From the NCBI GenBank assembly GCA_949358305.1, contig OX442314.1, forward strand, positions 29,512,001 through 29,576,000: a DNA stretch of 64,000 bases, written 5' to 3'. This document shows, one piece after another, positions 252 to 46,159 of this stretch. Every line of letters starts with the position of its first letter. The stretch's first letter is position 1. The notes under the pieces are model-generated. The model did not search any database and was not told the DNA's origin. It worked only from the letters and a program-made list of their open reading frames with translations. The stretch comes from Strigamia acuminata. Lineage: Eukaryota. The position numbers and the translations under genes were made by a program.

Positions 252-1315
252 TGTGGTGACCTCAAATATTCCTATTTGAGTGCGCACCATATTTCCAAAT
301 TGTCTTATAAACATATTCAACAAGCTTATATGTTTTGTTTCAATGTAAATTGAAATAAAACATACATTAATAAAATATAAAACAAGACACAATATTACCC
401 AAATAATATTGTGTTTTGCAGCAAGTTTTGGCCCAGCAACAGCGTCAACCAATCGCGCTGCAGCGTGCATTGCTTTGATGATGCTGCTAGGCGTGTGCCT
501 GGGCGGAGCATCCCTTCCCCTCGCGCGTGCCCGGCTCGATTGTTGCACACGACCCGAAGGCGGCCGTGTGTGATCTTCATGCAACTCGTCATCTGCGCAG
601 CTTTTCTGAGCAGATTTAGAAGTGAGCCAAACGGTTTTGGCCCACTCTTCCCGCATTCTTGATTCTGCTTCCAAACCATTCACATCTGTGTCAAACTTAT
701 GCCAACCATTGCTAAGTGTGATCTGTGATATCTGGAAGAGTTGAGATTCATTGCTGGTCCGTGCCAACTGTACGGAATAGCGCCTTTCTGCTTGAATTAC
801 TACGCGTAATTTAAGCCATTTCTGTGTGGAATTGACATAGAGCTTGCTCTGTCAATTTGAAGGCTTTGTGTTGAGTTTAACTCCACAAAGCGAACTGTGT
901 TAAGACGGATTGTTACGTCGAGCTTGCTCCGTAATAATCACTTTCACTGTGTGTGAGAAGTATTCTCGTGTCGAGCGTGCTCCACGAGGATTTTAGAATA
1001 TTTAGCAACGTATTTTAGCGTCGAGTTTACTCCGCTAAAATCCCGCGCTCACACGACGCCGTCGACGCCATCTTGGAGCCAACGGTCAACTGTGAGTGTA
1101 CATTTGAAGAAGAAGCCAGATCGACCCCAAACATTTTAAATAATACCTCCTTTGTATTTTGAACGATTAAAACTATCTAATTTTTCCTTTACTCTGTGTA
1201 AAATCATTCCCCTAGACAAACATTTGGCCACAGAGTAGAAGTCCTGTACGGCATCTCTACGACGATTGCTTATTGAATTTACATAATTTAATAAGTAAAA
1301 ACCCGGATCGCCGCA
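252..1315 (+). repeat. 5' LTR
   Basis: Starts TGTGGTGACC and ends GGATCGCCGCA (imperfect terminal inverted repeat). Repeated at offset 11734; ORF-track translations inside both copies are identical. Confidence 0.97.
790..1054 (+). other. Structured RNA domain in the LTR: five bulged TAR-like hairpins (830-857, 863-891, 908-939, 962-991, 1012-1041) plus hairpin 790-816
   Basis: Each unit is an 8-10 bp stem, a UA/UU/UC bulge, then GAG-loop-CUC. Lower stems differ in sequence but keep pairing; the only non-Watson-Crick pairs are G-U on the + strand. Confidence 0.85.
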
Positions 1316-1317
1316 CT

Positions 1318-1335
1318 TGGGGGCCCGTCCGGGAT
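1318..1335 (+). promoter_or_regulatory. Primer-binding site, tRNA-Pro type
   Basis: TGGGGGCCCGTCCGGGAT lies 2 nt after the 5' LTR and differs by one base from the MLV tRNA-Pro PBS TGGGGGCTCGTCCGGGAT. Confidence 0.9.
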
Positions 1336-1407
1336 AGTTTTGATTGTTAAAATTCGATTTTTGCAAAAAAATCCATTATTTCCATTGTTCTTTTTCAATT
1401 TGACAAA

Positions 1408-4302
1408 ATGGCGACGCCAATGCAAATTGTAAAACGACAGCGAGGTCGACCAAGCACTCAGAAACGAGCAGCGACGGTTTTGCCGGCTCTCGAGCCTGAA
1501 ATGCTTATGGAGAAAATTATTTCCGAGGAAATAACACCAGTTCCAGATCCGAAACAACTTAAGGATGCTGAAAATGAAGTTGCTAGAGCATTAAGCGCTT
1601 CAAGTGCGAGTTCTAACGACCAAGAACTCCCGCCACTTCCACTGGAGGAAGTGGAAAATACGTTACGTGAAATGGAAAGTGAATCGTCTCACGAATCACC
1701 TCCTCGCATGACCATGTTGGATGCTTTGAGAAATCAAGCACGCCAGGATGGCGCCCAAATAACGGACGACATGACGGTGGAAGAGATTCATCGCGCCATG
1801 ATACGACTTCACACTGACCGAGCCGTTTCAAATTTAAAATTTGAAATGGAACGGAAAGAAGCAGAGCTTCAACAACAAAAAGCTGAGGTTGAGCTTCAAC
1901 ACATGGAACTCAATCGACAAAATGAGGAATTTCTAGCCCAAAAAGCTAGAGAATACCGATTAAAAGGTGAAGTGGAAGATCTTTCTAAAATGAACGCTAG
2001 AAATGAACTTTCAATTCGCTCACACCAAGAGGCGCGAAGACAGCTCGAGCTTACCAAAAGTAAGCTGGAGCAGAAAAATAAAGAATTGATTGATTTGGCA
2101 GACCACTACCAACGCAATCATAATCAATTAGTGAGATATGCTGCTGAATTAGACACACGTGCTAAAACACAGCGTACTCGCGAGAGCAAAATAGCTAAGC
2201 GTGAAGATGAGATTTTCCACTCGCTGGATCAACCCAGTACGAGCGGACAAGTCAAGTCTAGCGACCCTGCTAAGCGATTACAACCAGAAGAATCGCAAAA
2301 TCAAATAAATGAGAATGAAATTCTCCGAGCTGATTTGTTGCGCGCTCAAGAAGAGCTTGCAGAAATGAAAGATCGTTTGCAAGCAAGGAATTATACTGAC
2401 CAATTGGTGCAACCAGAAATGGCTGCGCCAACTGTTCCTATTTTGACTCCCGAAACAATAACAATTTCTGTTGTTTCAGAGTTAAGTAGCCAATCTGGAT
2501 TATCGAGTGATGACGACCAACGTTCGCGTCGTCGCCATCGCTCAAAAAGAAAACGTCCTTCAGATTCTGAGGAACGGAGAGCTGATCGCAATCCACTTCC
2601 TGGTAATCGAAATCCTATTTTTCACAACAGTGACCGACTGTTGGGGATGGTAGACGATCGAAATAGACGGCATGAAACTGGTATTCATGTTACTCGAACG
2701 ATACCACTGGCTCAACAGCAAGACTCGTCAAAAAGAAGTCGACGAGACACGAATCCAGCACGCGAACCACCCGACGGACATGAAAGCCCGCCAGGTGGGG
2801 GTCAGTATAGAAGAAATCCACCAGATGGAGGAAATCCAGATGGACACGGAGATGGACCACCTGGAGGTGGACGTCGACCGCCAGACGATGACGGCGACCC
2901 ACCCGACCCACCTGAAACACCACATTTTAACACGCCTTCAAATTCACAATCTGATTCAAGGTCGGATTCTGATGTGAATGCGCAACAAGAACGCGATAAT
3001 CGACATCGATCTCATCGACGTCGACATCGAGGCCATTCTTCTCGGCGTAATACACATTATTACACCGCTGAAGAAATTGATCGATTATTAGCTGATCGTC
3101 GATCTTCCGATCGATCTGACGCTACTGCCGATAATGCTGACATCGCATTACGACAGAAAATTGCCCAATATACTGCAATCAACTGGACACACGATCTAGT
3201 TGACGAAAGGACTATTAGATGGGATCACATCAAACCCGCTTTATTCGATGGAGAATGGGAAGCTGGATCCACTCTTTTAGATGAAGTTTTACGAATTTCA
3301 AGGTTGAATGGCATTGCATGTCACACTGCTTTGAAAAGAGTAGTACCAAAAGCTCTTATAGACCGAGCTGAGAAATGGTTTTATTCTAAACAATTTCAAA
3401 ATTGGAACCACTTTGTAGAAGAATTCATGACTGAGTATGGAGAGTCAAGTGAAGACTTATTACAAATGTGGGATAATCTTTCTCAAAATAAAGGCGAAAG
3501 TCTTCGCTCTTATTTAAGAAGGACTGAGGATTTATTGGTCACTCTCCCTTATACGATGGGAGATGCAGCCATTGATCGTCAATTCCGACGTGGATTGACA
3601 GATTATTCAAAAAATGTTCTACTTTCAGTACGAGCACCTTATCCGGGTGGTTTCGCTGAATTAGCCAAATTTATGCGAGCCAATCAAATAAGGATTGACG
3701 AAAATTATAAAGCTTATCTACCAGCTGATGAAAAAGTTGCGTATGCTAAGCGACAGCAACGGAGAAAGGAATTAGCTAAAGATACACGTTTTGCTAATAC
3801 CCCTCTTTTGCAACCCCCAAAACGAGGAGATTTTTTGGCAGAGACTGCTAAGGAATCTAAAAAGGGATCGGATGGGAAAAATCCACATCCAACCCCTAAA
3901 GCTCACTTAGCCGAAGTGACAGAAATGGAAACTGTTTCTGAACCAGAGAAATCTGACTCGGAACCAGAAAGCGAGGCTGCAGCTGCTTTATTAGCCCGTA
4001 ATAACGCAGTAGCTCGAAAATTTGGACCAAAGATGGCACCTAAAAACGTTACTTTTGGTTCACCAAAGACAGACGCGCTCAGTAGATCGAAGTCGCCGAC
4101 CCCTAAAAAGGACGAAGCCAAACGTTCAAGTTCGCCTTCGCCAAAAGTCGCGAAATCGCCTGCTACTGACCCGTGTAATATTTGTAAAAAATTGGGACAT
4201 TGGGCTAAAGAATGTCCTGACAGAAAATCGAGCAAAGACAAGATTATAGAAGAGTTCGAGAAATCGATGAAATCAATCGGCGAACTTCTAAAAAACTTGT
4301 AA
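1408..4302 (+). CDS. gag: Gag polyprotein, 964 aa (long coiled-coil/disordered N-terminus, capsid-like region, CCHC zinc knuckle)
   Basis: First ORF after the PBS; knuckle CNICKKLGHWAKEC; capsid-like segment (AEKWF...WNHFVEEF...QNKGESLRSY). Confidence 0.92.
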   Translation: MATPMQIVKRQRGRPSTQKRAATVLPALEPEMLMEKIISEEITPVPDPKQLKDAENEVARALSASSASSNDQELPPLPLEEVENTLREMESESSHESPPRMTMLDALRNQARQDGAQITDDMTVEEIHRAMIRLHTDRAVSNLKFEMERKEAELQQQKAEVELQHMELNRQNEEFLAQKAREYRLKGEVEDLSKMNARNELSIRSHQEARRQLELTKSKLEQKNKELIDLADHYQRNHNQLVRYAAELDTRAKTQRTRESKIAKREDEIFHSLDQPSTSGQVKSSDPAKRLQPEESQNQINENEILRADLLRAQEELAEMKDRLQARNYTDQLVQPEMAAPTVPILTPETITISVVSELSSQSGLSSDDDQRSRRRHRSKRKRPSDSEERRADRNPLPGNRNPIFHNSDRLLGMVDDRNRRHETGIHVTRTIPLAQQQDSSKRSRRDTNPAREPPDGHESPPGGGQYRRNPPDGGNPDGHGDGPPGGGRRPPDDDGDPPDPPETPHFNTPSNSQSDSRSDSDVNAQQERDNRHRSHRRRHRGHSSRRNTHYYTAEEIDRLLADRRSSDRSDATADNADIALRQKIAQYTAINWTHDLVDERTIRWDHIKPALFDGEWEAGSTLLDEVLRISRLNGIACHTALKRVVPKALIDRAEKWFYSKQFQNWNHFVEEFMTEYGESSEDLLQMWDNLSQNKGESLRSYLRRTEDLLVTLPYTMGDAAIDRQFRRGLTDYSKNVLLSVRAPYPGGFAELAKFMRANQIRIDENYKAYLPADEKVAYAKRQQRRKELAKDTRFANTPLLQPPKRGDFLAETAKESKKGSDGKNPHPTPKAHLAEVTEMETVSEPEKSDSEPESEAAAALLARNNAVARKFGPKMAPKNVTFGSPKTDALSRSKSPTPKKDEAKRSSSPSPKVAKSPATDPCNICKKLGHWAKECPDRKSSKDKIIEEFEKSMKSIGELLKNL

Positions 4303-4335
4303 GCGCGCATCCAGACGGTCTAGTGGATGCGACGC
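4290..4335 (+). promoter_or_regulatory. -1 programmed ribosomal frameshift signal (gag-pol)
   Basis: Slippery heptamer A AAA AAC (4290-4296) is in gag phase. A stem GCGCGCATCCA/TGGATGCGACGC starts after a 6-nt spacer. The -1 frame is open into pol. Confidence 0.85.
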
Positions 4336-7300
4336 CTACCGCCTCGGAAAATGAACTAACACCATCTCAAATTTTAGATGAATTTTTGAATACTCAGATT
4401 AAATTAGAATTAGAAAATAATTTAATATTTCCAAAAATTGATGTTTCCAGTTTAAGGCTTGTGCTGCAAAATGAAAACATCACTGAAGAATTTTTTAAAG
4501 AAAAAGTTCAACAATTAAAAGTTGATTGGGAATCTAAAATGAAAGATGCTGTTACTTTACTAGATGGAAAAGCTAGGCCCACACCTGAAATCACTGAAGG
4601 ATCAGATAAAATTGATTTACCTGGTCTTGATGAATGTATTGAAAAATTACTGGCTACAACATTAGTCACTAATGATTTATTGGACGAATTACCATTGGAT
4701 CCGCCGATAAAAATTAAACCACCGCGACGTTTTAAATGCAAGTACGCGGACATACCAAACAGCAATGATTTGCCGACGATTCGATTGCAGACGGCAAACG
4801 GTATGATAACAGGGATGTTAGACTCTGGAGCTAATCGAAGCTTCATGGCCTACTCCGTAGTAATTTCACTGAAACTGGAAGATGAAATTCGACCAATTGG
4901 ACCGGATGTGAGAGTTACGACTGCTTCAGAAGATGTAGTCCCTGAAGGAACTCTCCTACTTTCTTTTGCGTGGACACACGGGATGTTAAGTCATCCATTC
5001 ATAATTTTAAGAAACAAATATCCTATTATTTTATTAGGATGTGATTTCATGAATCGACTCAATATTCAACCAAATCCTAAGACCATGTCTTGGAATTTTG
5101 TCAAGTCTTTGAAAGAAGATTTACCTTTTGTTCCTCAAGCGATTCTTGATCGTTATCAAGAGTTCCTTGATCCACCTGAAGAAATAATGAATAGCGACTT
5201 TATTAAAGTAAATCACATGAAAGCTGGTTCCGCCACTGCATGTCAAGCTAAAGTTGCCGATGAAGAAAATATAGTACAAAGACTTGTTAGCGACGCTAAT
5301 TTGTCAATGGAAAATAATTTAATGCTTGAAAGAGTATTAAAGAAACATGAAAAGATTTTATCACGCCGACCAGGTAGAACACACCTCGTTAGGCATGAAA
5401 TTAAACTGGACACTAAAGTTCCTATTAGAGTTCCGTTTAAAAGCGTAAATCCACAGAAACGTGAAATTATCCGTCAAATCTGTCAAGATATGTTGGATAA
5501 TGGGTACGTTGAACAAGCCACTGGAGACTATGGGATGCGAATAGTTCTAGTGATGCGTCCGGATTGTGATCCGAGACTATGCATTGATTTTAGACCACTC
5601 AATGCACATACATTATACGACCCTCCTCAAATGCCCAGCATTGAGGAAATCTTGCGAGAACTCGGAAGGTTTGAATGGGTCACAACAATAGATTTGTCAA
5701 AAGGCTATTGGCAAATAGAGGTTCATCCGAATGACCGTGCTAAAACTGCGTTTTGGAGCCCTTTGGGTCGACTTCAATTTCGAGTCATGCCCTTTGGTCT
5801 CGTAAATGCGCCGTCAACTTTTCAAAAGTTGATAGAAAAAATTTTGGGGGACGCCTATCGAAAATTCGCATGGGCATACCTCGATGATATAATTATTATA
5901 TCAAAAAATTTTGAAGAACACATGATTCATCTGGAAGAAATTCTGAGTAAACTTGAAAATGCAAATCTTCATGTTCATCCAGAAAAATCAAAATTTGGCA
6001 GAAAAGAATTAACTTTTCTTGGTTACAAGTTAAGTGTTCAAGGAGTTAGTGTCGACCCTAAAAAAGTCGCAGCTATTAAAGAAATGCCAGCTCCTTCGAA
6101 TTTGAAAGAGTTGCAAAGATTTTTGGGAATGGTGAACTTTTTTCACCGATTACTTAAAAATCTTGCAGTAATGACAGAACCTCTACGTCCTTTACTCAAA
6201 AAGGATGTGGAATTTATTTGGTCAGAAATTCATCAAGAAGCTTTTGATCAAATAAAAGATGCTTTGACAAATGCAGAAACAATGGCCATGCCTGATTTGA
6301 CAGAACCATTTATTGTGCATACCGACGCCAGCAGAAAAGGACTTGGCGCCGCGCTTATGCAAATGAGGGAAATCGATGATCAAAATATAGAAGTGCCTTG
6401 TGTTTATGCCAGCAGAAGTTTACAACCTGCTGAGATAAATTACAGCGCCACAGAATTGGAGTGCCTAGCGGTAATCTGGGCATTACGTAAATTTCGACAT
6501 TACTTGGAATTTACAACATTCATAGTAAGAACTGACCATCAAGCACTAAAATGGTTGATGCAGTTAGACGAACCTGCCGGAAGGTTAGCGCGTTGGCAAA
6601 TGGAGCTAATGCGCTACTCTTTCGAAATACAATATATTAAAGGTCCACTAAATGTTTTAGCGGATGCTTTATCCAGATCACCGATTGATAAACCGGAAAA
6701 TCCTGAAGATGATGGAGATAATGATGAATTATTATCTTACTGTCCATCACCACAACGAAATTGGAAAATGGGAAAATTTCATGAGCTTCCTGTCTCCACG
6801 CTGGAGGAAAAGGAAGATCACGAATTCGTCAACTATTGGACTAAAATCTATGACCCCTCTGAGGAATCAGATGACGTCATAAGAGCGCAAATTTCAAGGA
6901 AATTCCAAGTTCCTTCGTCAAATGTTTTAATAAAAGCATTTGTCGCCAAAATTGTAGAGCGTCTTGATTGTGAACCCCCCACAAGGGAAGACATAATCAA
7001 GGCCCAAAAAGAAGATAAAGTTTGCCAATTAATGCGTAATTTTTTAAATTGTAATCAATTTCCGCCTGACGTCACAACGCGACTCCAGAGGAAACAATAT
7101 AGAAAACACGCAACCACCTTCTTAATTGAAGATGACTTATTAATGCAATTTCATCCCACAATGTCTGATGAATTGGGGGAGGATGGGAGAGCACTCAAAG
7201 TTTTTGTACCTCAGACATTGAAGTATAAAATTATTTGGCTAATGCATGGCCACCCACTTTCTGGCCACCCAGGAATTGCAAGGACTCTTTATCGAGCACG

Positions 7301-8771
7301 CCGAATTTATACCTGGAAAGGCATGAAATCGGACATTACGAGATTCATTCGACATTGTGAGCGTTGCCAAGCTTGCAAGCCTCGAACGAAAGGACAAATT
7401 GAAGCAGCGCAAATGGGTCCTTACAGCCCATTTGACTGCCTAAGTGTTGATTTGACCGGCCCAAAACCTCGGACGCGCAAAAACAACACACATATTTTAG
7501 TCATACTTGACGTGGCAACTCATTGGCCAGAATTATATCCAATGTGTAACCCCACTGCTGGAAAAGTAGCAAATTGTATTTATCACCTTTCCATGAGCAT
7601 GGGATTCCCTCGTAAAATTATTTCTGACAACGGCCCGCAATTTCGTGCCCAAGTCTTTAAAAAATTTTGTGAAAAGTTCAAGATGGTTCCAACACCAACT
7701 TCAACGTATCACCCACAAGCTAACCCGGTTGAAAGGGTTAACCGTGACATCAAATATTTGGTTGCAATTTATTCATCGGTTCATTCCAAATGGGACGAAT
7801 ATTTGCGTGAATTTGCATTTAGTTTGAGAACTACGGTGACGAGAGGAAGAGACTTCTCTCCCGCATTTCTTAACTTTTTTTGCGAACTCAGAGTACCTTG
7901 GGATCCAAGAATACCTGAAGGAATTTTGGTCGTAGATCCAAAAAACCCACATTTATACGTGCAAAAATTAGAAGCCGTTATCGCCGAAACATATCAGCAC
8001 ATGATGTCACACGTGTTAGATTTGCGTAGACGAGTTAATCTTAAAAAAGAAGGTGAGAAGTTCTCCAATTTTAAATTAAACGATTTAGTTTGGAGAGATT
8101 CTCATGTTTTGTCGAGCGCTGCCCGCGGCATTGCAGCTGGCATCGCTGATAAAAGAACAGGACCATATGTAATAACCAAAGTATTACAGGGAGGATCCGT
8201 AGAATTGAGAAAGCTAGAAAATAACGAAATATTTCCAGCTGTCCATTCGTCTGAATTAACTCCGTATTTCCCGAGTTTCGATCAGGAAGTATGGTTAGAA
8301 GGCGAAGAAGTCGGTCAAAAGACTGAAAATATAATTAATACGTTAGATGACGATGAATTAAAGAAAATACCTGTCGATAATTCATCCAAACCACAAATGG
8401 AGTCAGACCTCGTGAATAACGACGTTGAACTTCGTGACAGTTTCAAAAAGCTTGAAATTGCTAAAAAATTAAATAAAAAGGTGTTTTTAGAAAAGAAACA
8501 AAAAACATCTGAAATAAAAGACTCATCTGACTCAGTCTCCGATGACAATGAAGACGGCGATTTAAATACAATAAATCCCTCGCCGACAAAGAGATATAAT
8601 CTTCGGACTCGTAAACCGAGAGGAAAAAACAACATGTGTCTTCTCCCCTCGATAACCTCGAGATCCAGGGATCAGCCGTATGACGTAAGGAGCAATTCCT
8701 CAAGCCATACTCAAACCAATCAAACAGTAAGATTGGATGACGTCACTAACAGCGACGTTACCCAAACGTAA
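4290..8771 (+). CDS. pol: Pol polyprotein (protease, reverse transcriptase, RNase H, integrase), expressed by frameshift
   Basis: Protease LDSGA; RT YLDD; RNase H TDAS...ELECLA...TDHQAL...ADALSR; integrase HHCC (HGHPLSGH...CERC), DLTG...SDNGPQF...VERVNR and a GPY motif; no internal stops. Confidence 0.97.
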   Translation, partial: KKLVSAHPDGLVDATPTASENELTPSQILDEFLNTQIKLELENNLIFPKIDVSSLRLVLQNENITEEFFKEKVQQLKVDWESKMKDAVTLLDGKARPTPEITEGSDKIDLPGLDECIEKLLATTLVTNDLLDELPLDPPIKIKPPRRFKCKYADIPNSNDLPTIRLQTANGMITGMLDSGANRSFMAYSVVISLKLEDEIRPIGPDVRVTTASEDVVPEGTLLLSFAWTHGMLSHPFIILRNKYPIILLGCDFMNRLNIQPNPKTMSWNFVKSLKEDLPFVPQAILDRYQEFLDPPEEIMNSDFIKVNHMKAGSATACQAKVADEENIVQRLVSDANLSMENNLMLERVLKKHEKILSRRPGRTHLVRHEIKLDTKVPIRVPFKSVNPQKREIIRQICQDMLDNGYVEQATGDYGMRIVLVMRPDCDPRLCIDFRPLNAHTLYDPPQMPSIEEILRELGRFEWVTTIDLSKGYWQIEVHPNDRAKTAFWSPLGRLQFRVMPFGLVNAPSTFQKLIEKILGDAYRKFAWAYLDDIIIISKNFEEHMIHLEEILSKLENANLHVHPEKSKFGRKELTFLGYKLSVQGVSVDPKKVAAIKEMPAPSNLKELQRFLGMVNFFHRLLKNLAVMTEPLRPLLKKDVEFIWSEIHQEAFDQIKDALTNAETMAMPDLTEPFIVHTDASRKGLGAALMQMREIDDQNIEVPCVYASRSLQPAEINYSATELECLAVIWALRKFRHYLEFTTFIVRTDHQALKWLMQLDEPAGRLARWQMELMRYSFEIQYIKGPLNVLADALSRSPIDKPENPEDDGDNDELLSYCPSPQRNWKMGKFHELPVSTLEEKEDHEFVNYWTKIYDPSEESDDVIRAQISRKFQVPSSNVLIKAFVAKIVERLDCEPPTREDIIKAQKEDKVCQLMRNFLNCNQFPPDVTTRLQRKQYRKHATTFLIEDDLLMQFHPTMSDELGEDGRALKVFVPQTLKYKIIWLMHGHPLSGHPGIARTLYRARRIYTWKGMKSDITRFIRHCERCQACKPRTKGQIEAAQMGPYSPFDCLSVDLTGPKPRTRKNNTHILVILDVATHWPELYPMCNPTAGKVANCIYHLSMSMGFPRKIISDNGPQFRAQVFKKFCEKFKMVPTPTSTYHPQANPVERVNRDIKYLVAIYSSVHSKWDEYLREFAFSLRTTVTRGRDFSPAFLNFFCELRVPWDPRIPEGILVVDPKNPHLYVQKLEAVIAETYQHMMSHVLDLRRRVNLKKEGEKFSNFKLNDLVWRDSHVLSSAARGIAAGIADKRTGPYVITKVLQGGSVELRKLENNEIFPAVHSSELTPYFPSFDQEVWLEGEEVGQKTENIINTLDDDELKKIPVDNSSKPQMESDLVNNDVELRDSFKKLEIAKKLNKKVFLEKKQKTSEIKDSSDSVSDDNEDGDLNTINPSPTKRYNLRTRKPRGKNNMCLLPSITSRSRDQPYDVRSNSSSHTQTNQTVRLDDVTNSDVTQT

Positions 8772-8813
8772 CTTCCGGTATTTGAACTGATCACTTCGCG
8801 TCTGAGTTCACTT
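8681..8813 (+). promoter_or_regulatory. Candidate internal promoter for the accessory gene
   Basis: TGACGTAA 8681, CCAAT 8716, ATTGG 8732, TGACGTCA 8738, ETS-type ACTTCCGG 8771, Inr-like TCACTT at 8791 and 8808, followed by a GTAAGT donor at 8895. Confidence 0.5.
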
Positions 8814-8979
8814 CGATCTCACACGTGTGCTAAGTGCTCATCTCCGAAAAACCAAAAGCGAAACAACTGGATAAATTCTCCCGAATCTTCAATTGTAAGT
8901 AGTTTTTTCTTTGGAATTTTCCAAAGAAAAACTAATAAATTAATTTTCGTTTTTCTTTCCATTTGGATTAGTCGTTCAA

Positions 8980-11812
8980 ATGGAAGGAGAGGAACCGAAA
9001 GAAGGAAGCGAAGCCGGCGCCAACAGCCTCGAATTAGAGACAAATTCGACGCTGCTTGGTTCCGCAAACACTTCGAATACATCCGTGGATGTCACCGAAG
9101 AATCCGCCGAAGCGTCCGCCGAAGCTCAAGCCGCTCTGGCCGACGCTGCTGCCCGTTTGCCAGTCGCGCTGCCCCGACTACGAGGAGGCCTATTCGCCGA
9201 TCCGAACGGCGAAACTCGTGCACAGAGACACGACCGGGTAAATAATTCAAAATAAAATTACCTTTCAGTCATGAAAAGTAATTAAAAGTGCATTTTCACT
9301 CGGAAAAAGCGAAAAGTTCGTTGGTAACGCCTTCGCAAGAAGGCGCCGCCATTTTTATCATCAGATGGCGCTGTGTCTCATTTTTGAGGCGTTGCTACGG
9401 CAACGCTCCAAACACTGAAACATAGCCGTCGGAAACAACGTTTTTCACGATTTTTCAAACATTTTGAAAAATTTAACGAATCTAAACTGTCGAATGAAAT
9501 CTCACCCGTGATTTTATTCACTGAAAATTCGGAAATAATTAATTTTAACGAAAAAATGGATTTTAATTATTTCTTCGAATATTTTACAGATCATCCAGCT
9601 TCGGGAGACGCATCTCGAACTACACCCCGATGTTCCAACAGCTCCTGGTGTCTGGCGACATGCATTGCCGCCAGAAATCATCAAGTCCAAAGGAAGACTG
9701 ACGTTTTGGGCGGCCCGACACAAATTCTCCAAGGCCTTAAACAAGCGATGGGGAACAAAGTTTCGGATCGCCTACTTAATCGATGGATTCGGTCATCGCG
9801 ACGCCCTCGAGTGGGCAATGAAGCGCGACACCTTCGGACCACTGCGAAACGTGTTGCTCGACTTCGCCTTCACAGTGATCGCTCAAGAAACGCGAGACCA
9901 TCGCCGTTACTTCAACGCTCCTGCGTGGGAGCGCCGACAGATTTTGGAGGACATTTTCCAACGCTTGGACCAAACCAAAGCCGAGGTTGTACGCCTCTAC
10001 CACGAATCTTTCCGTGTAACAACGGACGGAAAGAAACGTTGGGTGCCGACATGCCAGTCGGAAATGCATCAGCTAGCCATGGGCGGATGTTTCCATGCTG
10101 ATTTCGTGCCAAACCCGTATCCAGAGCCTGAGCCCCGGGTACAGGTCGCTTCCACCATCCACGTGGTGCCGCCGCGCTCCACGTCGAGGTCACGATCATC
10201 GAGGTCGCCCTACAGTGGCCGTCGCTCCTCCCCAACCCAGTCGTCGGGGGAAGGCGCCATTGGAGGGTTACCTCCACTCCAGAAGACTCGTCATCGCTCA
10301 CATCACCGACGCGAGTCGACGCCGCCAAAAAGACATTCGAAGTCCGTGTCGAGACCCGCATCCCGAAGCCGACCTCGAGTGCAATCGCGCCAATCTTCCA
10401 CGAGGAGTTCACTCTCGTCGCGCGAAGAAAGATCCAACGCTTCTCAGCTTAGCGCTTCCACCTCCTCCTGCCAGATTGACTGGTCGGACGAGATAGCGAA
10501 GGAAGATCGTCGCATCGCCGCTTTGCAAGCCGGTCAAGGAGACGTCAACACCTCTTTGCCGTTCGCTTGCCGTCCAGTCACCAGCGACATGCGACCAGAC
10601 CCATCGGTGCCCGTGCCACAAGTGACATCGGTCATCCGTTTTGAGGGATACGTCTCTCACGAACCATTTCCCGCACAGGAGTGCGCTGATCTCTGGAGGC
10701 GATTCTCATCGTTTCCCGAGACAGCCCAAACGATGTACCTCGCGCATCTGGACGAATACCAACTCGCTCAGATCCGCGAAGGAGAGAAGGAATGGCAATG
10801 GCTTGCCCGAGAGCTTGCGTCGTGCAAGTCCGACAAGCAACTGCAACGGACGCTGCAGAAAATGAACAGGAAATTGTCGGAGGGACTTCTTCGAATCCTG
10901 TTCCAAGGAGTCTTTCCCGACCCACAGATTGCTCTGGCGGCCGCCACTCGATTGTGGACCGTGCCGTTAGGGCTTCCACGAGCCTTGCTGGACGATTGGG
11001 AGTCAGTTCGCCCCGATCCTCCAACGATGCTCGCCGAATTGACGCAACAAGCCGAGGCGACTGGCGAAACTCCGGCTGGATCCGCCATTCGACTACGGCA
11101 GGAATGGGCTGCGCTGAAGCAGCGACGCGCAGCAGAACGAGCTACCGCCCGTCCCGCTGGCGCACCACCGTCATCCGCAGCTCCACTCCACGCTGCCATC
11201 ACGGCAACGTCGAGTGTTTCCCGTGCAACCGAGGCACCGAGTTGCAACATCTCGTCTCCGATGGAATGGCTCGACAGCGACGATCGCGAGTTCGTCGTGC
11301 CTGTGGCCAGCGGTGCCAGACCAAAGACGCGCACCCCGGCTTTGCGCAGATCCAGATCCCTCTCGATCTGCAAAAAGTCGCCGCCACCGCTGCCTCCTCC
11401 AAAGGATTCGCCGCCGAGAGATAGGGGATCGAAAATGGCCACCTACCTCACTGCCTATCAACGTTTGCGCTCTTTATACGCTTTTTGCTACATAACGAGC
11501 GCGACGAAAACGATTCTCCAGAACAGCGAGGATTTATGCAACCGAGTCCTCGCGTGGCTGGAAAACCATATCAAGGAACAACAGCCGTGGATCCTGCATC
11601 AACGTCTGGTGTTCGCTCGAATTACGCCTCAAGACCCGCAGGAGTATTTCGAGATGGGTTTTGGACGAAGGGATGGTGTGGACCGCATCAAGCAAGTGTG
11701 GCTCCACATCAACCCTGGCTTCCGGTCAGGACCAAACGCCGGCCGACCTTTGTGCACCGTCACCGAGCACAAAGATCCAAACGATCATTCGACGGACATG
11801 TTGCCGAAATAA
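8980..11812 (+). CDS. Spliced accessory protein of unknown function (~826 aa; coding exons 8980-9237 and 9590-11812), Arg/Ser-rich, not env-like
   Basis: Donor CGG|GTAAAT (9238) and acceptor TTTTACAG|ATC (9589) join the 91-aa and 715-aa ORFs in frame (phase 0). An upstream intron at 8895-8971 has GTAAGT, a CTAAT branch point and a pyrimidine tract. No signal peptide or transmembrane segment is visible. Confidence 0.8.
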
Positions 11813-11971
11813 TTAGGGAACACGCCCGTTCATTAAAAATAATTCCTTTTTTATTTTTATATTGTAATAAAAAAGAATAAATATATATCCTGTTCCATTT
11901 TACTTTGAAACCTTGTGTATTTATTCCTATACTTACCTGTCTCTTTTTGGAAAAGAATAAGATTCTTTCTT

Positions 11972-11985
11972 AAAAGGGGGGAAAG
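11972..11985 (+). promoter_or_regulatory. Polypurine tract
   Basis: AAAAGGGGGGAAAG immediately before the 3' LTR. Confidence 0.92.
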
Positions 11986-13049
11986 TGTGGTGACCTCAAA
12001 TATTCCTATTTGAGTGCGCACCATATTTCCAAATTGTCTTATAAACATATTCAACAAGCTTATATGTTTTGTTTCAATGTAAATTGAAATAAAACATACA
12101 TTAATAAAATATAAAACAAGACACAATATTACCCAAATAATATTGTGTTTTGCAGCAAGTTTTGGCCCAGCAACAGCGTCAACCAATCGCGCTGCAGCGT
12201 GCATTGCTTTGATGATGCTGCTAGGCGTGTGCCTGGGCGGAGCATCCCTTCCCCTCGCGCGTGCCCGGCTCGATTGTTGCACACGACCCGAAGGCGGCCG
12301 TGTGTGATCTTCATGCAACTCGTCATCTGCGCAGCTTTTCTGAGCAGATTTAGAAGTGAGCCAAACGGTTTTGGCCCACTCTTCCCGCATTCTTGATTCT
12401 GCTTCCAAACCATTCACATCTGTGTCAAACTTATGCCAACCATTGCTAAGTGTGATCTGTGATATCTGGAAGAGTTGAGATTCATTGCTGGTCCGTGCCA
12501 ACTGTACGGAATAGCGCCTTTCTGCTTGAATTACTACGCGTAATTTAAGCCATTTCTGTGTGGAATTGACATAGAGCTTGCTCTGTCAATTTGAAGGCTT
12601 TGTGTTGAGTTTAACTCCACAAAGCGAACTGTGTTAAGACGGATTGTTACGTCGAGCTTGCTCCGTAATAATCACTTTCACTGTGTGTGAGAAGTATTCT
12701 CGTGTCGAGCGTGCTCCACGAGGATTTTAGAATATTTAGCAACGTATTTTAGCGTCGAGTTTACTCCGCTAAAATCCCGCGCTCACACGACGCCGTCGAC
12801 GCCATCTTGGAGCCAACGGTCAACTGTGAGTGTACATTTGAAGAAGAAGCCAGATCGACCCCAAACATTTTAAATAATACCTCCTTTGTATTTTGAACGA
12901 TTAAAACTATCTAATTTTTCCTTTACTCTGTGTAAAATCATTCCCCTAGACAAACATTTGGCCACAGAGTAGAAGTCCTGTACGGCATCTCTACGACGAT
13001 TGCTTATTGAATTTACATAATTTAATAAGTAAAAACCCGGATCGCCGCA
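11986..13049 (+). repeat. 3' LTR (second copy of the hairpin array at 12564-12775)
   Basis: Direct repeat of 252-1315, followed by the AATT TSD. Confidence 0.97.
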
Positions 13050-13432: not shown

Positions 13433-15062
13433 TACTACGAGCGACATGGGTTGGCGCGACACGCACATTCGCACCTACGCATCTGGGTAGTTGCGTGTAA
13501 GCATGCCGGTGGTATGATCTGGCGCGACACCGTGATGTTTAGCGACACGCAAGTATTACGTGCCTCTCGTGTTTAAAGTTTGATTTTTTCGATAAATGAA
13601 AATTTTATGTGTATTTTATTCGTCCCACCTATGTAAATAAATTAAAAGCACCTGAGTTTCAAGTTGTGATACATAATTCAATCGCAATCCGAAATTGCAG
13701 CAAAGAAATCCGCTGTTTGGTCCAGTTTAAAAGACATCTTATATGCATAATTCCTTCTGGCCATATTAATTTTTTTTTTTAAATTATTAAATTGCTTGAA
13801 CTTTTGCTATACGTATGATTTGATTTGTACACGGCATTTGCAAGTTAGTGCACGCTCAAAGTCTAACAGGTTAATCTAAGCCAAAATATTTGGCTGCAAG
13901 ACACGATTTGCTCGCGAAGTAAACTGTGTTCATGATTTTTCACTTGGTAATTAACTTGATGTTTTCACCCAACGTTTTCTGCAAGTTTATTGCATTTCCA
14001 CGGGGTATGTCTGGCTAAAAAATGGCGTGACCTGGGAATTTGGACAAAGTGACGAAACCATCCACAATTCAGCCGACCAGAACTGCGTGAAAATTCGTCC
14101 CAAAAACCGTCAAACTGTCACGGAAGATAAAAAACAAGTATTCATCCTTGTGTATGCACGAAGGCGATTGTCGCGCTTATTCATCCGCGTGTATGCACGA
14201 AGGCGATGTCGCGCTTATTCATCCGCGTGTATGCACGAAGGCGATGTCGCGCTTACGCATGCCAAGCACAGGGGTTGGCGCGACGTCGCGCTCCCGAATA
14301 CGTAGTCAGTGTTGTGCGCGGTCCGCGGTCCTGGTACCGCGGTCCTGTTCCGGCAGCTAAAATGAACCGCGGTCCCGGTCCGCGGTCCCTGGACCGGGAC
14401 CGCGTTTTGCGTTACATCTCGCGGTCCACGAGAAAACACGAGATCTCGTGTTTTCTCGTGGATCGCGAGATATACCGCAAAATACTGGAATCTCGTCGTT
14501 TTCAAAATGCGTAGGTAAAACGTTCACTGCCTAGCGCAAACGTCAAACACACAAAAGCAAACATTCAATCCAATTGAAATGAAATGACAATCGAGTGTAA
14601 TAGCATTTTTCATAAATTTTCATAATTTTTTCAGTTTTAATTAGTTTTAAAACGTTTTTTAATGCTATTACACTCGATTGTCATTTCATTTCAATTGGAT
14701 TGAATGTTTGCTTATGTGTGTTTGACGTTTGCGCTAGGCAGTGAACGTTTTACTTACGCATTTTGCGGTATATCTCGCGATTTCGTGTTTTCTCGTGGAC
14801 CGCGAGATGTACCGCAAAAGCGGTCCGCGGTCCACGGAATTTTAAAAGGAAAGCGGTCCCGGTCCGCGGTACTGGACCGGCCTTTTAAAAGTACTGCGGT
14901 CCCGGTCCGTACCTGCCGCAAAAGGAACGCGGTCCCGGTCCCGGTCCAGGACCGCGGACCGGCGGTCCTGGATCGCCGGTCCGGGACCGAGACCGCGCAC
15001 AACACTGTACGTAGTGTATTCGAGAGTGCGACGTCGCGCCAACCCATGTCGCGCGTCGTACA
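13433..15062. mobile_element. Non-autonomous inverted-repeat element hosting a nested MITE
   Basis: GCGACATGGGTTGGCGCGAC at ~13441 is inverted at ~15035-15054; internal ~38-bp tandem repeat x3 at ~14140-14255. Confidence 0.55.
14307..15007. mobile_element. hAT-type MITE
   Basis: 17-bp terminal inverted repeats (TIRs) CAGTGTTGTGCGCGGTC; 8-bp TSD TACGTAGT (14299-14306, 15008-15015); internal inverted repeat with ~105-bp arms (~14505-14763). Confidence 0.88.
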
Positions 15063-15959: not shown

Positions 15960-18029
15960 ATGGAGCAATTTCTAAAAGAAAACGAGTCGGCTGAGATTTC
16001 TGTTCGACAGGTGGGACAAAACAATGTATGCACAACTGGAAATTCGGTAACAATACATTTTCAAAACTTCAGTAAGCGCTAAAATCGAAAACAATGTCCG
16101 ATGATTTTAATTGTTCATTTGAATGTTGTTTAATTTTCTTTTACAGGTCTTACACAAAGTTTGGAAAAACCGTATTCTCATAGTAAGATTTCATAAAAAA
16201 ATTTTGTGATAAACTCTTATCATTCTTTCATTTTCTTTTGTTTTTTTTTATTTGTTTTGTTTTAGACAGTTCTGATATCAATCCTGATGTTTTGAAAAGT
16301 TTAATACCAATATTTGAGAACTACAGGTGTGTAATATTACCAGACATTGCCACAGAAATTGATGATTTTTTATCGCAGGGTGGAAAGATTTGAAATAAAA
16401 ATCAAAAGTCACAGAGGAATGATAAATCTTGATGTTCATCCAATGGATACAATCCAAAGCATCAAACTAAAACTACAATTGGTGTATGGAATACTCTTCA
16501 GCAAACAATACCTCATATTTGAAGAAAAAGTGCTGGATGATGTCGAGAAATTACAAGACTGCAAACTCTCCGATGCCAGTCTCATACACATGGTCTACTC
16601 ACTAGAAGAAACCGGAACTGTAGTATTTTTCAAACGTATACTCGGACGTCTGTTTTGTCTTCGATTTAACCAAGAAACTACAATAAGAGACGTAAAATCA
16701 AAAATTGAGGAAACCGAAGAAATACCTGTCAAGAGGCAACGCTTGTTTCTTGATGAAAGCACGACTTTGAGAGATGAGTGCAGAATATTTGATTATAACA
16801 TCGGCAACAAAATAGTGAAGATTGCCATTGCTGTGGAGCAAGATGAAATGAGGAAAGTTATGGTCAAGTCACTGACTGGAAAAATGTTGTACTTGGTTGT
16901 TGGGCTTTACGACACGGTCGAGGATTTAAAATGTCAACTCGAAGCCAAGGACGGAGTTCCACGAGAAAGTGTGCGAATCATTGTCAACAGTAAGAGTTTG
17001 AAAGATGATTGCATGCTATGTACTTGTTTCGACACTAAGATTACGATATTTCACCAATTCCGGAGACTGAAGGGAGGGGAAGAATTTACTCCTGATTTAA
17101 GCATCCACACTGCAATTGGTGAAATTATTTCACTTGGTCCCGTGATACCTTTTAACTCTAGAATTCTGCTGCGATCCGGGTTTATGTGAACAATTTCTAA
17201 TAAATTGCACACAACACCGCAGTTGAATGCCACTAAGGACTTATATCGATATGGCCTTAAATTATCTAGGGTTAATTTTACGGAAATAAAATACAGTTTT
17301 ATCAATAAAAACACACAATCTTTTATTCGGTTAAATACAATAAGATACGAGAATAAATGTGATAAAATATGGAAAGAAACAATAGAAATACTCGCAACGA
17401 CTGTTGCGAGTCAAAAGCGCGGCAATGGCGCTTAAGAACGGCTGTTGTACAAGGTTTTGTACAAGAAAAGCTGGTGAATCTTGAGTATTAACACGGTCCA
17501 CTATCAGTACTTTTGTCGGAGCAGAAAGCAATGATGTTGTGGGTTGTGTTATTTTGTCAAGAGTCCCGTTCGAAGCTAGGGCGTGAGCCCGACACACTTC
17601 GAAATTGCGCAGATAATCTGCGCAATTAGTTAAAACTGGTGCGACAAAGGATTATTGCACCATAACGGCTAATTACCGTTTTCACCCTGGACAACCTGGG
17701 GTGAGATGTGCCTAGGGAAGATTTCTCCCCTCGGTCACATGATCTGACTTAACGTGTGCCAAGCCAAATTAATTAGAAGATAAAATAAATTCACCTTCTA
17801 AGTGGTGAAACAGTTTGAGATCACTACACTTCTTGCCGTTAAACAACAGGTGTTTCAAGCAAGGGGATTGTCAGTTTGGAGTCAAAGACTATTCATTGTG
17901 AATGAAGAACTGGACGACAATAAAGCGGTGAATGAAGAACTGGACGACAATAAAGCGTTGAATGACTATTTTACTCCACGGAAAAATCATCCGCCGGTTG
18001 TTTTTGAGATTTTAATGATGATGATGTGA
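15960..18029 (+). CDS. Poly-ubiquitin-like protein paralog 1 (four UBL domains, fourth interrupted); exons 15960-16071, 16147-16182, 16266-16326, 16379-~17150, ~17802-18029
   Basis: GT-AG introns keep frame. UBL signatures: LDVHPMDTIQSIK...QYLIF, VKSKIEETEEIPVKRQRLF, VKSLTGK...LEAKDGVP...RRLKGG. The fourth domain resumes after ~650 bp of unrelated sequence. Confidence 0.75.
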
Positions 18030-19411: not shown

Positions 19412-21263
19412 TTAGATTACAAAACCTTTCACAACCAATTCCAACGTAATTTCAGGTCCGAATTCTTCGCATGGTCTTGAACTTTGATATTGAAGAATGT
19501 AATATTTCAATGGTTTGTCATCATCAACTAATTCTTGATCGCATAAGAACAAACGTTGATTCTCAGGCAGAAAACTCTTATTCGATTCATACATTTCTTG
19601 TTTAATGGTGCAAATCTTAAACTCTTGATAACCGTTGTACACTCCAAGAGAAAATATTTGTCCAATCGACGTTCTCACTGACAGCATAGTAAAATTGCTT
19701 CCACCTACTTGTCTCATGTAAACATGCAATGTGGCATTTCTTGTAATTACGTAATCGTTCATATTTTTTTCGTCTTCAAGGCTTTTGCAATTAAATACAA
19801 TATTTAGTAAGTGTGGTGGACACATCATAATCTTTTGAATTTTTCTCTTAACATCATTATCTGTTTCGTACATGCCAACTTCCAAGCATGTGTCTTGACC
19901 ATAACCCCGCAGAAAGATGGATTTAAAGTCCTCTTTCATAACCTTGGCTGCTAACTTGAAAATGGTTGTCTCAACTGGGTAATCGTTAATTGTGCCGCCA
20001 TCTTGCATCACCAGACCAGTCTCTGTAAACAACTGTTGCCTGTCTACTGGCAGTCTTTCCTCTTGTTCTATTTGTGTTTTCACAGTTTTTATAGTGCAAT
20101 TTGGTTCAACTTCGAGTTTAAATATTCTTCCATGGATTCTTTGGATTAGAATAAGTATTTTATCTGTGTGCGACAAGTGAAATAGAGTTATGTTATCGTT
20201 GTTGTTAATATTGCATTCCTTGATGGTGTTTTGATTTTGCAGAATTTCTTCTCCAAATACGAGACATTGTATCTAAACTCTATTCCAAAAAGTATTACAA
20301 ATACTCCCATTGGTTGGTTGGTTGAGACACTTTAAAAAATCTTCGCACAAGTCTACTGGAATCTGAAAACAGCATCATATTCAAGACACAACTGAACTGT
20401 GAATCTCCCAACCAATGGGAGTATTTGTAATACTTTTTGGAATAGAGTTTAGTTTGAGTTTAGTCGTTTGTATTGTATCTGAAGGATGGACATCCAGAAT
20501 TACATATTCATCGTTGTTCTTTATTTGAATTTGGATTCTATTTTTTCTGAAAAGTGAATCAAAATGTATAATTGAAATACAATGTTTTCACAGAATATAG
20601 AAATGAATTACTGGAAGAAAATAACTAGTGGGTTTTTATAAATAACCTTACCTGTGGTTCTCGAATAATGATAACAAAGAACTTATTTTATTGGGATCCT
20701 TGTCAGCTGCAAAAAAAAAATAATATTGTTACACAAATACAAATCTCAATCAATGTGTTCCATTTTTGATATGCGATGAATTACGCAATAACAACCGCCC
20801 AATTGTCCCCCCGATGAGTTGGCCACAAGATTACTTTGCACGCGATTACCTGTCTGCGTAATTACCTGTCCGCGCAATTACCTGTTCACGCGATTATCTG
20901 TCCACGCGAGTACGGTGGCTGTACACTATGAGTGGTCGCGTGATGATAAGTTGCCGTACAAAAAAACAATTTTTTACACATAAAAAGTTTATATTTTGTA
21001 TTTTTATATTTTAAAAATGTTCATTTTTGCCAAACTATCAAAACTAATTAAAATTATTTGTTATCAAAGAAATTTAGTTGATGGGAATTTCCCTTTTGAA
21101 TATACTGACCGCTTTTTACATGGATTACTACCATGTTGTCTCCTATTGTACAAGAATTACCGTCTCCCTGCTGCGAGATACTAATTTTGTTCAGTTCTGT
21201 CTTCACCTCTTTAACCGAAACACAGTTATTCTCTTCTTCTTGACAAGGAGTGATTTTATCCAT
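19412..21263 (-). pseudogene. Poly-ubiquitin-like paralog 2 (four UBL domains), first UBL disrupted by a MITE; exons 21263-21110, 20706-20652, 20546-19412
   Basis: UBL motifs (LEVEPNCTIKTVKTQIEQEERLPVDRQQLF; TLHVYMRQVGG). Exons are homologous to paralogs 1 and 3. The MITE introduces in-frame stops. Confidence 0.75.
20276..20449. mobile_element. TA-flanked MITE inside a UBL exon
   Basis: ~42-bp TIRs AACTCTATTCCAAAAAGTATTACAAATACTCCCATTGGTTGG; absent from paralog 3, which has ~26 bp of coding sequence at this position. Confidence 0.85.
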
Positions 21264-25461: not shown

Positions 25462-26818
25462 TTAAAAAGGAACAATGTTTACGTTGTTATATCGGAAATT
25501 TTCAAATGTAGGGGTATTGAATATGTATTCAATATTCCGATAATAATTTTCATCATAAATCGGTTCATTGGGAGCTACAAAGCCAATTGGTTGAGGTTGA
25601 CTGCAGCTTTGCAGAGAAATGGATTTAAAGTCCTCTTTAATCATTCTGTCTGCTAACTTGAAAACGGTTGTCTCAACTGAATATTTATTAATTGCGTCTT
25701 CATCTTGTATTATCTGGCCACACTCAGTAAACAACTGTTGCCTGTCTACTGGCAGTCCTTCTTCCTGTTCTATTTGTGTTTTCACAGTTTTTATAGTGCA
25801 GTTTGGTTCAGCCTCGAGTTTAAATAGTCTTCCATGGATTCTTTGGATTAGAATAAGTATTTTATCGCTGTGCGACAAGTGAAATAGAGTTATGTTATCA
25901 TCGTTGTTAATATTGCATTCATTGATGGTGTTTTGATTTTGTAGTATTTCTTCTCCAAATACGAGACATTGTATCTTGTTGTCTACCCCAAAGATCAATT
26001 CTAGTTTGAGTTTAGTAGTTTGTATTGTATCTGAAGGATGAACATCAAGAATTATATTTTCATCGTTATTCTTGATTCGAATTTTAATTCTATTCTGTCT
26101 GAAAAGTGAATCAAAATGTTTAAATTGAATACAATATAATATTCCTATAGATACAGAATATAGAAATAACTAAATACTGTATACCTGTGGCTTTCAAATG
26201 CTGATAACAAAGAACTTATTTTGTTGGGATCCTTGTCGGCTACAAAGAAAAATATAATTTATTTCACAAGTACGAATCTCAATCAATACGCCATTTTATT
26301 TTTGTAGTGTTTCAAATTTAAAATTGCAGTTTCATTTGTCTAAAATGTGCAACTTTTGCACAAAATTGCAGTTTTGTTTATTCAAAATGAATTTTTGCAC
26401 AAAATTGCAGTTTTGTTTATTCAAAATGAATTTTTGCACACAAAATTTCTGTTTTATTTGTCTAAAATGAATATTTGCTGATAAAATGTCAGGCATTATC
26501 TAATCAAAACCAAAACGGATGTTTGCAAAATTTCAAGTTATTTTCTTAAAAAAAATCATTTGTGTGTGTAAAAATGAATTTTTTTTATTCTTAATTTTAA
26601 AAATCTTCATTTTTTGCCATCTTTTCTTGTCAAAGAAAATTCCCCTTTTAAACATACTAACCTTTATTTAAATGGACAAACAGCATGTTGTCTCCTATTG
26701 TAATGGAATTACCATCTCCCTGCTGCGATATACCAATTTTGTTCAGTTCTGTCTTCACCTCATCCTTAATTGAAACACAATTATTGCCGTCTTCTTGCCA
26801 AGGAACAATTTCTTCCAT
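25462..26818 (-). CDS. Ubiquitin-like paralog 3, truncated to two UBL domains with an unrelated tail; exons 26818-26662, 26239-26185, 26098-25462
   Basis: Close duplicate of paralog 2 with the same splice sites. Homology ends after EDFKSI (~25615), but the frame stays open to 25462. Confidence 0.7.
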
Positions 26819-44702: not shown

Positions 44703-45178
44703 GTCTAAATTGAACAAAACGACTAAAATAGATGTCTAAATTGAACAAAACGACTAAAATAGATGTCTAAATTGAACAAAACGACTAAAATAGATGTCTA
44801 AATTGAACAAAACGACTAAAATAGATGTCTAAATTGAACAAAACGACTAAAATAGATGTCTAAATTGAACAAAACGACTAAAATAGATGTCTAAATTGAA
44901 CAAAACGACTAAAATAGATGTCTAAATTGAACAAAACGATTAAAATAGATGTCTAAATTGTGCAAAACTGCTAAAATTAATGTCTAAATTGAACAAAACG
45001 ACAAAAATAGATGTCTAAATTGAACAAAACGACTAAAATAGATGTATAAATTGAACAAAACGACTAAAATAGATGTCTAAATTGAACAAAACGACTAAAA
45101 TAGATGTCTAAATTGAACAAAACGACTAAAATAGATGTCTAAATTGAACAAAACGACTAAAATAGATGTCTAAATTGA
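44703..45178. repeat. 31-bp minisatellite (GTCTAAATTGAACAAAACGACTAAAATAGAT)n
   Basis: About 15 near-identical abutting units with no spacers. Confidence 0.95.
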
Positions 45179-46159
45179 CCAAATCGATTGAATTCAGTAT
45201 TTTAAGTATAGGTTTTGTCAATAGAGTGCGGGTGTTCTGTCAGAGCTATTTACGGTAATCTACTGTTTGTGGTGATTGGTGAGGAAGTTTGCTGGAGGAT
45301 TGGGTTTATGAATGAATAAAATGAGGTTTAATTAGGTATGGAATTGTTTATTGAGCAATGAACAATGTAGAAACTTGAGAAAAGTGTTGATAATAAGCAG
45401 AGGTTTAGGTTTATCCTGGAGAGGAGCATGAGGGATATCCGTGAATATTCGATTTGGTTGGTTTAAAGGGAATGGAATTGTGCGTGGTTGATTGGAGTTG
45501 TGTGTCTCCATGAATGAAAGTTTTGGTGTGAGTGGAGGCAAAAATGGGGAAAGGTTTTTTAAACTATATTTGTGGGAATTTAATTGGATTTATGGTGATT
45601 TACGGATTTGAGTTGATTTATGAGATTTCGGTAGATGTCCATTAGTTTTAAAAGATTTGATTCGCATAGATTTTTATGGATGTGTGTGGATAGTTTATTG
45701 ATTTTTTAAATTTGCAAGGATTTTTATACACTTCTAACTATAATTTGTATACTAGTAGATTTGTTTAGTTTTTTTACAGATTTGTAAAGATTTTATATAG
45801 ATTTGTACAGATTTTATACAGATTTATATAAATTTTATACAGATTTGTGTAGATTTTATACAGATTTGTGTAGATTTTATACAGATTTGTGTGGATTTTA
45901 TGTAGATTTGTATGGATTTGTATAGATTTCTGTGGAGTTTGTATATATTTTTATGGATTTTGTATAGATTTATATAGTTTTTTATGGATTTTGGATAGAT
46001 TTGTAATGATTTTCGTCGAAGTTTTATAAATTTTTAAGAATTTCTATAGAAATGTATTGATTTTCAAGGATTTTCATTTATTTTTATATTGATTTCTAAG
46101 GAGTTCACTTTTTGAAACTTTTATTTCATATGCGTATCACTTCAGTGGTTTGTTACAAA

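Follow-up and report, generated by a model that had tools for sequence, protein, structure and literature searches.

What does a gene with introns do in an element that is copied through its RNA, and what keeps those introns in place? The question is raised by a 12.8-kb Ty3/gypsy LTR retrotransposon that lies intact at positions 252-13049 of the window (the whole 64,000-nt stretch of Strigamia acuminata DNA analysed here) and carries an additional gene, ORF3, where retroviruses place env (Table 1). The element has LTRs, a primer binding site, a polypurine tract and a target duplication, and gag is followed by a pol with protease, reverse transcriptase, RNase H and integrase in that order, the protease match being weak (Pfam, E 0.014). 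The primer binding site looks Pro-like, resembling the 3' end of tRNA-Pro. Since the two LTRs are identical and gag and pol are open, the insertion is very young.

The named relatives of pol are arthropod and fish proteins. Its RT-RNase H segment is at most 48% identical to the 120 relatives fetched and occupies a long branch in a 53-row tree, the rows of which are the relatives up to P0045 plus the named ones, without named lineage references. Long LTRs (about 1-2 kb), a length of 10-12 kb and mostly 4-bp target duplications are likenesses to gypsy elements of the Osvaldo lineage, as far as the part of their description that was consulted goes; the Culex members described there have a tRNA-Lys primer site and one or two ORFs (PMC3286476), whereas the primer site of the present element looks different.

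The Gag protein (region 1351-4302) is long, at 964 aa counted from its ATG; a coiled-coil-like stretch lies at its N-terminus, and patches rich in His, Arg and Ser precede the capsid region. The pol frame continues for about 350 aa beyond the integrase core. With TATA-like motifs at 306 and 376 and AATAAA at 354 and 369, all close to the start of the LTR (252-1315), U3 would be short and U5 roughly 900 nt long. Donor-like sites at 622 and 1092 in the LTR could splice to the ORF3 acceptor.

Table 1. Features of the element and of ORF3 (positions in the window)
Feature	Position	Strand	Remarks
5' LTR	252..1315	+	1064 bp, identical to 3' LTR; 4-bp target duplication AATT
Primer binding site	1318..1335	+	from sequence
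gag	1408..4302	+	Retrotrans_gag and CCHC knuckle; frame intact
pol	4221..8771	+	PR-RT-RH-IN order, Ty3/gypsy; -1 frame overlap with gag; intact
Putative internal promoter	8716..8827	+	motifs only; overlaps pol end
Candidate intron 1	8895..8971	+	5' UTR, 77 nt, 23% GC, GT..AG, GTAAGT donor, CTAAT branch-like site
Long hairpin, predicted	8945..9000	+	intron-1 pyrimidine tract pairs with AUG and first codons; acceptor AG in loop
ORF3 first coding exon (exon 2)	8980..9237	+	ATG 8980, 86 codons, acidic, ends at phase-0 donor
Intron 2	9238..9589	+	352 nt, phase 0, GT..AG; exactly skipped in one contig
ORF3 second coding exon (exon 3)	9590..11812	+	740 codons
Helical N-terminal region, predicted	9704..10096	+	ends in 2 Cys / 2 His cluster; low-confidence model
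Ser/Arg-rich tract	10175..10474	+	31 S, 19 R in 100 aa; PY-NLS-like and PPKR basic motifs
Central all-helical domain, predicted	10673..11146	+	mean pLDDT 67 folded alone
Helical C-terminal region, predicted	11426..11710	+	low-confidence model
Two AATAAA hexamers, candidate internal poly(A) signal	11866..11881	+	between ORF3 stop and polypurine tract
Polypurine tract	11972..11985	+	from sequence
3' LTR	11986..13049	+	1064 bp, identical to 5' LTR

A gene under selection, and not an envelope gene

Translation from the ATG at 8980 across a single phase-0 intron yields 86 + 740 codons, the product of about 826 aa that was proposed in an earlier note on this DNA. That note had two canonical introns fusing two ORFs. 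Both have the GT..AG ends claimed for them (8895-8971 and 9238-9589), but intron 1 does not join two ORFs: its last nucleotide lies 8 nt short of the ATG, and the upstream frame that would feed the gene lacks an ATG and stays open for just 20 codons. It can be no more than a candidate 5' UTR intron; joining of pol to ORF3 through it is ruled out by the wrong phase, and its joint is absent among the 15 of 16 contig joints listed. By a rough score, the acceptor of intron 1 is weak (29th of 732 AGs) and that of intron 2 ranks 6th, with the two donors 4th and 5th of 558. The top-scoring donor of the element, at 8053 inside pol, sits in a long stem (8048-8110, z -5.4) and may be a buried cryptic or alternative donor. 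The exons are GC-richer than pol, as had been noticed (0.60 and 0.57 versus 0.39), and the GC contents of the introns are 0.23 and 0.34.

That this frame should be a GC-rich accident or a decaying relic with unused introns is very improbable. GC-rich DNA does favour open frames, homologues were not found and the structural models are of low confidence, but at the composition of exon 3 an open run of 740 codons would arise with a probability of about 1e-11 (the other five frames have 7-20 stops), and the variation between copies of the element also speaks against an accident. Variants were tallied for the best-supported 40 of 151 rows from two public sequencing runs (X1 and X2), which contain the stretch with all 30 bins covered. 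All eight listed variants in exon 3 are synonymous third-position changes, where a fraction of 0.25-0.29 would be expected (P 1e-5 to 5e-5); in neither of the other frames is any of the eight synonymous. The listed variants are synonymous at 10 of 11 positions in gag, 12 of 15 in pol and one of three in exon 2, the three remaining rows being non-coding. Seven indels are listed: five of 1 nt, every one of them outside coding exons, and two in coding sequence, of 3 and 6 nt. The ORF3 protein is kept by selection about as strongly as gag and pol, and the neutral decay in sister copies that the earlier note had named among the outcomes that would refute its reading did not occur. The synonymous bias, confined to the ORF3 frame, already largely refutes accident or relic, and the indel pattern and the exact skip of intron 2 described below point the same way.

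Homology searches used the two exons separately, exon 2 against Pfam alone. Pfam has no family for either exon, and no homologue of exon 3 was found in a collection of 5.8 billion proteins (near and shorter lengths) or, with phmmer, among 1.84 billion representatives; PDB sequences gave no match, and metagenome and viral contigs, searched also with pol as bait, no ORF3 relative. The ESM Atlas returned a blank for the whole exon and for the central domain, which shows neither absence nor novelty. Neither gag nor pol of this element resembles ORF3, the rest of the 64-kb window contains no donor copy, and the literature (mostly open-access papers, without supplements) yielded no description of ORF3. 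A clear match to env or to a captured host gene, another outcome that would have counted against the earlier reading, failed to appear in Pfam, the large protein collections or PDB, and the suggestion of a possibly new protein family would be compatible with these searches with separate exons. With no homologue or fold match and no membrane anchor (see below), ORF3 is not env.

The ORF3 protein

The signal peptide and transmembrane anchor of an envelope protein are missing from ORF3. Its N-terminus is acidic, as described, with 16 D/E and 7 K/R among the first 86 aa; no 19-residue stretch exceeds a hydropathy of 0.77 in exon 2 or 1.09 in exon 3, in keeping with the earlier remark that no anchor is visible; and exon 3 contains no RX(K/R)R site. 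What the protein does have is a basic tract in which the Arg/Ser richness first reported is real: 17 RS/SR dipeptides per 100 aa, against a maximum of 10 in 300 whole-protein shuffles, 6 in gag and 4 in pol; read in its other five frames, the DNA of the tract gives 0-5. It is no canonical RS repeat, however, the longest strict repeat being 4 residues (P=0.04 versus shuffles of the tract itself), and the RRM of SR proteins is missing from the picture: Pfam gives no family even at an E of 1, and the models contain no strands. The tract also includes a PY-NLS-like motif.

Modelled as a single sequence, the whole of exon 3 gives a poor prediction (pLDDT 39) of three helical regions with disordered linkers between them. 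The folded region that was said to end in a C/H cluster does contain the two Cys and two His, but at a pLDDT of about 30 the fold is doubtful and metal binding unsupported. The central region is predicted to be helical throughout, as anticipated (Table 1); among 48,161 chains its best match scores Z 6.7 over 140 aligned residues, at an rmsd of 6.4, and none attains Z 8, so that the likeness is to generic helical bundles only. There is no viral structure match at E 0.001. The model of the whole exon has no PDB match at E 0.001, which tells little, poor as the model is, above all in its N- and C-terminal regions.

A protein of this kind might work outside the nucleus. Ser/Arg tracts occur in coronavirus N and hepadnavirus core, and ORF3 could encode a cytoplasmic RNA-condensing or particle-associated factor, its nucleocapsid-like tract aiding packaging, storage or delivery. 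The env position, the basic tract, the predicted helical domains with disordered linkers, a PTAP motif and the PPLP motif within the proline-rich PPPLPPP pointed out earlier would all suit such a role. Short motifs arise by chance, however; gag already has a knuckle; ORF3 resembles neither gag nor pol of its element; and no capsid fold appears among the 50 structural matches listed for the central domain. We regard a role of this sort as rather unlikely.

Probable intron removal, RNA structure and a putative ORF3 transcription unit

The evidence for removal of intron 2 is one X1 contig that omits exactly its 352 nt (9238-9589), with GT..AG ends. The depth of this contig is 506, compared with about 16,000 for single element contigs and 75,000 for the summed bin in the same run; the intron-keeping sequence clearly dominates X1, depth not being copy number. 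The short side of the joint is 28 letters, and the joint is found in one contig of one of the two runs, being absent from the X2 listing. Joints in these runs are often tied to restriction sites: 12 of the 15 listed (of 16) touch GATC, GANTC, CTNAG or TTAA (18 of the 30 ends; the background rate is 21%), and two of these join GATC to GATC. Together with coverage that is even across the introns and pol, these cut-site joints suggest that the runs, X1 in particular, are Hi-C DNA, in which case the skip of intron 2 is likely to represent a rare intron-less retrocopy made by reverse transcription of spliced RNA.

A ligation product has to be weighed against this. The right (acceptor) end of the intron-2 joint contains a GATC cut site, and a GATC with one mismatch lies 2 nt upstream of the donor. 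A chimera ligated at a GATC variant there predicts a skip of 353 nt or extra letters, such as the 3362-5338 joint shows, whereas 352 nt are missing, and the donor end is at least 2 mismatches away from any cut end. The joint quite probably derives from a retrocopy or a spliced form, and splicing of intron 2 is very likely. Another GT..AG joint, 8805-9113, was rejected as an intron for its poor context and its left end at a CTNAG cut site. The premise of the earlier note, that introns are retained only if unspliced genomic RNA is the form that is copied, agrees with the small share of the depth taken by the intron-less form.

RNA structure in cis might by itself limit splicing, a possibility that had been passed over. 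The acceptor of intron 1 lies in a long predicted hairpin (Table 1), and opening it would cost 18.0 kcal/mol versus 8.2 in shuffles (0 of 60); for the acceptor of intron 2 the values are 9.0 and 4.6 kcal/mol (2 of 60), and donor 2 is predicted to be open (58 of 60 shuffles are more closed). Intron 2 folds at z -7.3, second of 31 windows of equal length, and includes 7-bp stems capped by GNRA and UNCG loops at 9328-9345 and 9389-9406, which occur together in 1 of 3000 shuffles. Intron 2 as the sole structured region was nonetheless rejected, the whole element being structured: 27 of 92 of its sense-strand windows, gag and pol included, have z < -3, compared with 4 of 106 host windows, and its strongest 352-nt fold starts at 2034 (z -10.9). 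Selective burial of cryptic splice sites of gag-pol in hairpins was also rejected, for a control that compared strong with weak sites showed no excess of burial in the strong ones (P 0.75, 0.26). In view of the structure found throughout and of this control, the acceptor hairpins and the fold of intron 2 may be unspecific. Two of the three listed substitutions in intron 2 and one indel touch predicted pairs, weak or terminal, with no compensation visible, and Rfam has no match anywhere in the element.

Judged from its sequence, ORF3 looks like a self-contained unit with its own promoter-like cluster and its own AATAAA, a point that the earlier note missed. Just upstream of intron 1 are CCAAT boxes at 8716 and 8731, a CRE palindrome at 8738, an ETS site at 8771 and an E-box at 8822. 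Three or more of these motif classes are found in only 3 (overlapping) of 1276 windows of 200 nt across the 64 kb, and all four are reached in none of 20000 local and none of 200 whole-element shuffles; because three of the four classes were first spotted by eye, the shuffle tests are post hoc and the cluster is suggestive only. AATAAA occurs 3 times in gag, 5 times in pol and nowhere in exon 3, downstream of which stands the hexamer pair of Table 1. At four-fold sites, the GC content of ORF3 is 0.58-0.59, versus 0.28 in gag, 0.33 in pol and 0.28-0.43 in four host ORFs. A transcript started at an internal promoter would have no primer site and so could not be copied into a new element, which helps to explain the survival of the introns; the genomic RNA must still cross both of them unspliced.

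So complete a gene anatomy, and a four-fold-site GC content so far from that of gag, pol and the four host ORFs, might betray a foreign or host gene, captured at the DNA level with promoter, introns and poly(A) site and conferring a benefit that has nothing to do with handling the element's RNA. Neither the 5.8 billion proteins, the 1.84 billion representatives nor the rest of the 64-kb window supplies a donor, however, and the promoter-like motifs, coinciding as they do with codons of pol, suggest that the promoter arose in place; capture appears improbable.

The anatomy would equally serve an early transcriptional activator or anti-silencing factor (similar to Tas of foamy viruses or VANC of plants) that switches on the LTR, with an mRNA that looks like a host mRNA and escapes silencing, and with structure alone retaining the introns. 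The promoter-like cluster reproduces the layout of foamy virus accessory genes, going by the consulted part of PMC6875641; the acidic N-terminus could serve as an activation region; the GC at four-fold sites is set apart from that of gag and pol; and excerpts of two further papers relate that introns shield against HUSH in mammals (PMC7619638) and that transposons have anti-silencing proteins (PMC13547354). The HUSH precedent is mammalian, however, and may not apply to this host, Pfam and the structure search with the central domain detected no DNA-binding or chromatin domain, and the Ser/Arg tract points toward RNA processing. An activator is, in our estimate, doubtful, although its chance is a real one.

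Precedents and a working model

Detailed knowledge of unspliced-RNA export in LTR elements covers few systems. The closest functional precedent for ORF3, by analogy and with no sequence link found, would be CERV of the C. elegans Ty3/gypsy element Cer1, which the consulted sections of PMC10309623 describe as an orphan protein of 517 aa, encoded by a spliced mRNA to which the gag frame contributes the first three of five exons, required for export of the genomic RNA and composed of an H domain, an M domain with four invariant Cys and a G-protein-like domain. ORF3 resembles it as an orphan of a gypsy-type element with three predicted folded domains, flexible linkers and a small Cys-containing loop. 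Both elements retain conventional splice sites, so that in both the genomic RNA must leave unspliced (PMC10309623). The differences are considerable: CERV shares gag exons, whereas ORF3 seems to lie wholly 3' of pol with its own ATG and 826 aa, no gag exon having been found for it; ORF3 has the S/R tract and, probably, a promoter of its own, and its predicted domains are all-helical, without a match of the G-protein-like kind; and its C/H cluster has 2 Cys instead of the four invariant ones of the M domain, a distinction drawn from the descriptions of the two.

Internal promoters drive 3' genes in other elements, according to the portions consulted of the papers on env of Oikopleura Tor3b/4b (PMC4402516) and on foamy virus tas/bet (PMC6875641). 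In these the 3' gene does not depend on the LTR but has a promoter within or just past the coding region that precedes it, an arrangement that the motifs suggest for ORF3 too. The 3' genes of the Tor elements encode membrane glycoproteins, however, and their internal-promoter RACE products are unspliced (PMC4402516), whereas ORF3 has its own intron(s); and foamy viruses also carry env (PMC6875641), which the present element does not. Extra ORFs of often unknown origin occupy the same site, between pol and the 3' LTR, and are conserved family-wide, as ORF3 of the bdelloid elements Juno and Vesta and as plant aORFs, to judge from the text seen of PMC5408684 and PMC7264820. The rotifer ORF3s have their matches among GDSL, DEDDy, coiled-coil or membrane proteins (PMC5408684), whereas the present ORF3 matches nothing searched. 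The word intron is absent from the main text of the rotifer paper (PMC5408684), and the accessible part of PMC13524379 has nothing on introns; in plant Copia elements, splicing is coupled to early termination (PMC5580714).

Our tentative reading, to which we give somewhat less than an even chance, is that ORF3 encodes a separately transcribed Rev/CERV-like nuclear regulator that keeps the genomic RNA unspliced and exported. From the end of pol, a promoter without a TATA box would produce a short, host-like, spliced transcript that leaves by the normal mRNA route, may terminate at the AATAAA pair upstream of the polypurine tract and, having no primer site, would never be copied into a new element. 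The LTR-driven genomic RNA spans the same introns and would have to remain unspliced, with the hairpins over both acceptors slowing splicing. The protein would enter the nucleus by way of its basic Ser/Arg tract, bind a structured RNA that spliced transcripts lack, with intron 2 as the candidate, and license export in the manner of Rev and CERV, and occasional leaks would generate rare intron-less copies. We count the S/R tract, the NLS-like motifs, the buried acceptors, the promoter-like cluster and the CERV precedent in favour of a Rev/CERV-like regulator; against it stand the lack of a recognised RNA-binding domain and a tract that is not a canonical RS repeat. Elements with only gag and pol also export their RNA without any such protein. 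The more specific proposal, that an active animal gypsy element has a full host-type gene for a new protein family, and that the protein reads a structured element in its own intron and so forms a feedback switch between regulator mRNA and genomic RNA, an independent invention of the Rev/RRE type beyond retroviruses and nematodes, is unlikely.

Short host-type introns that survive repeated reverse transcription beside a rare intron-less form make a natural test of the fates of spliced and genomic RNA. If the protein were the switch, retrotransposons would have a second Rev-like factor, unrelated to the first, and it would represent a new protein family; an anti-silencing role would extend that strategy to animal LTR elements. 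The finding pertains to one species, without homologues found, and to data at the DNA level.

Elsewhere in the window, three host ORFs have tandem ubiquitin-like domains (16335-17189 on the + strand, 19412-20272 and 25462-26169 on the - strand), two of them sharing a 300-nt stretch that is 88% identical, and an exon at 28718-29137 resembles the V-ATPase c'' proteolipid. Nested long inverted repeats at 14386-14838 and 55028-56121 resemble fold-back or MITE-type DNA elements, and there are many tandem arrays, for example at 44599-45311.
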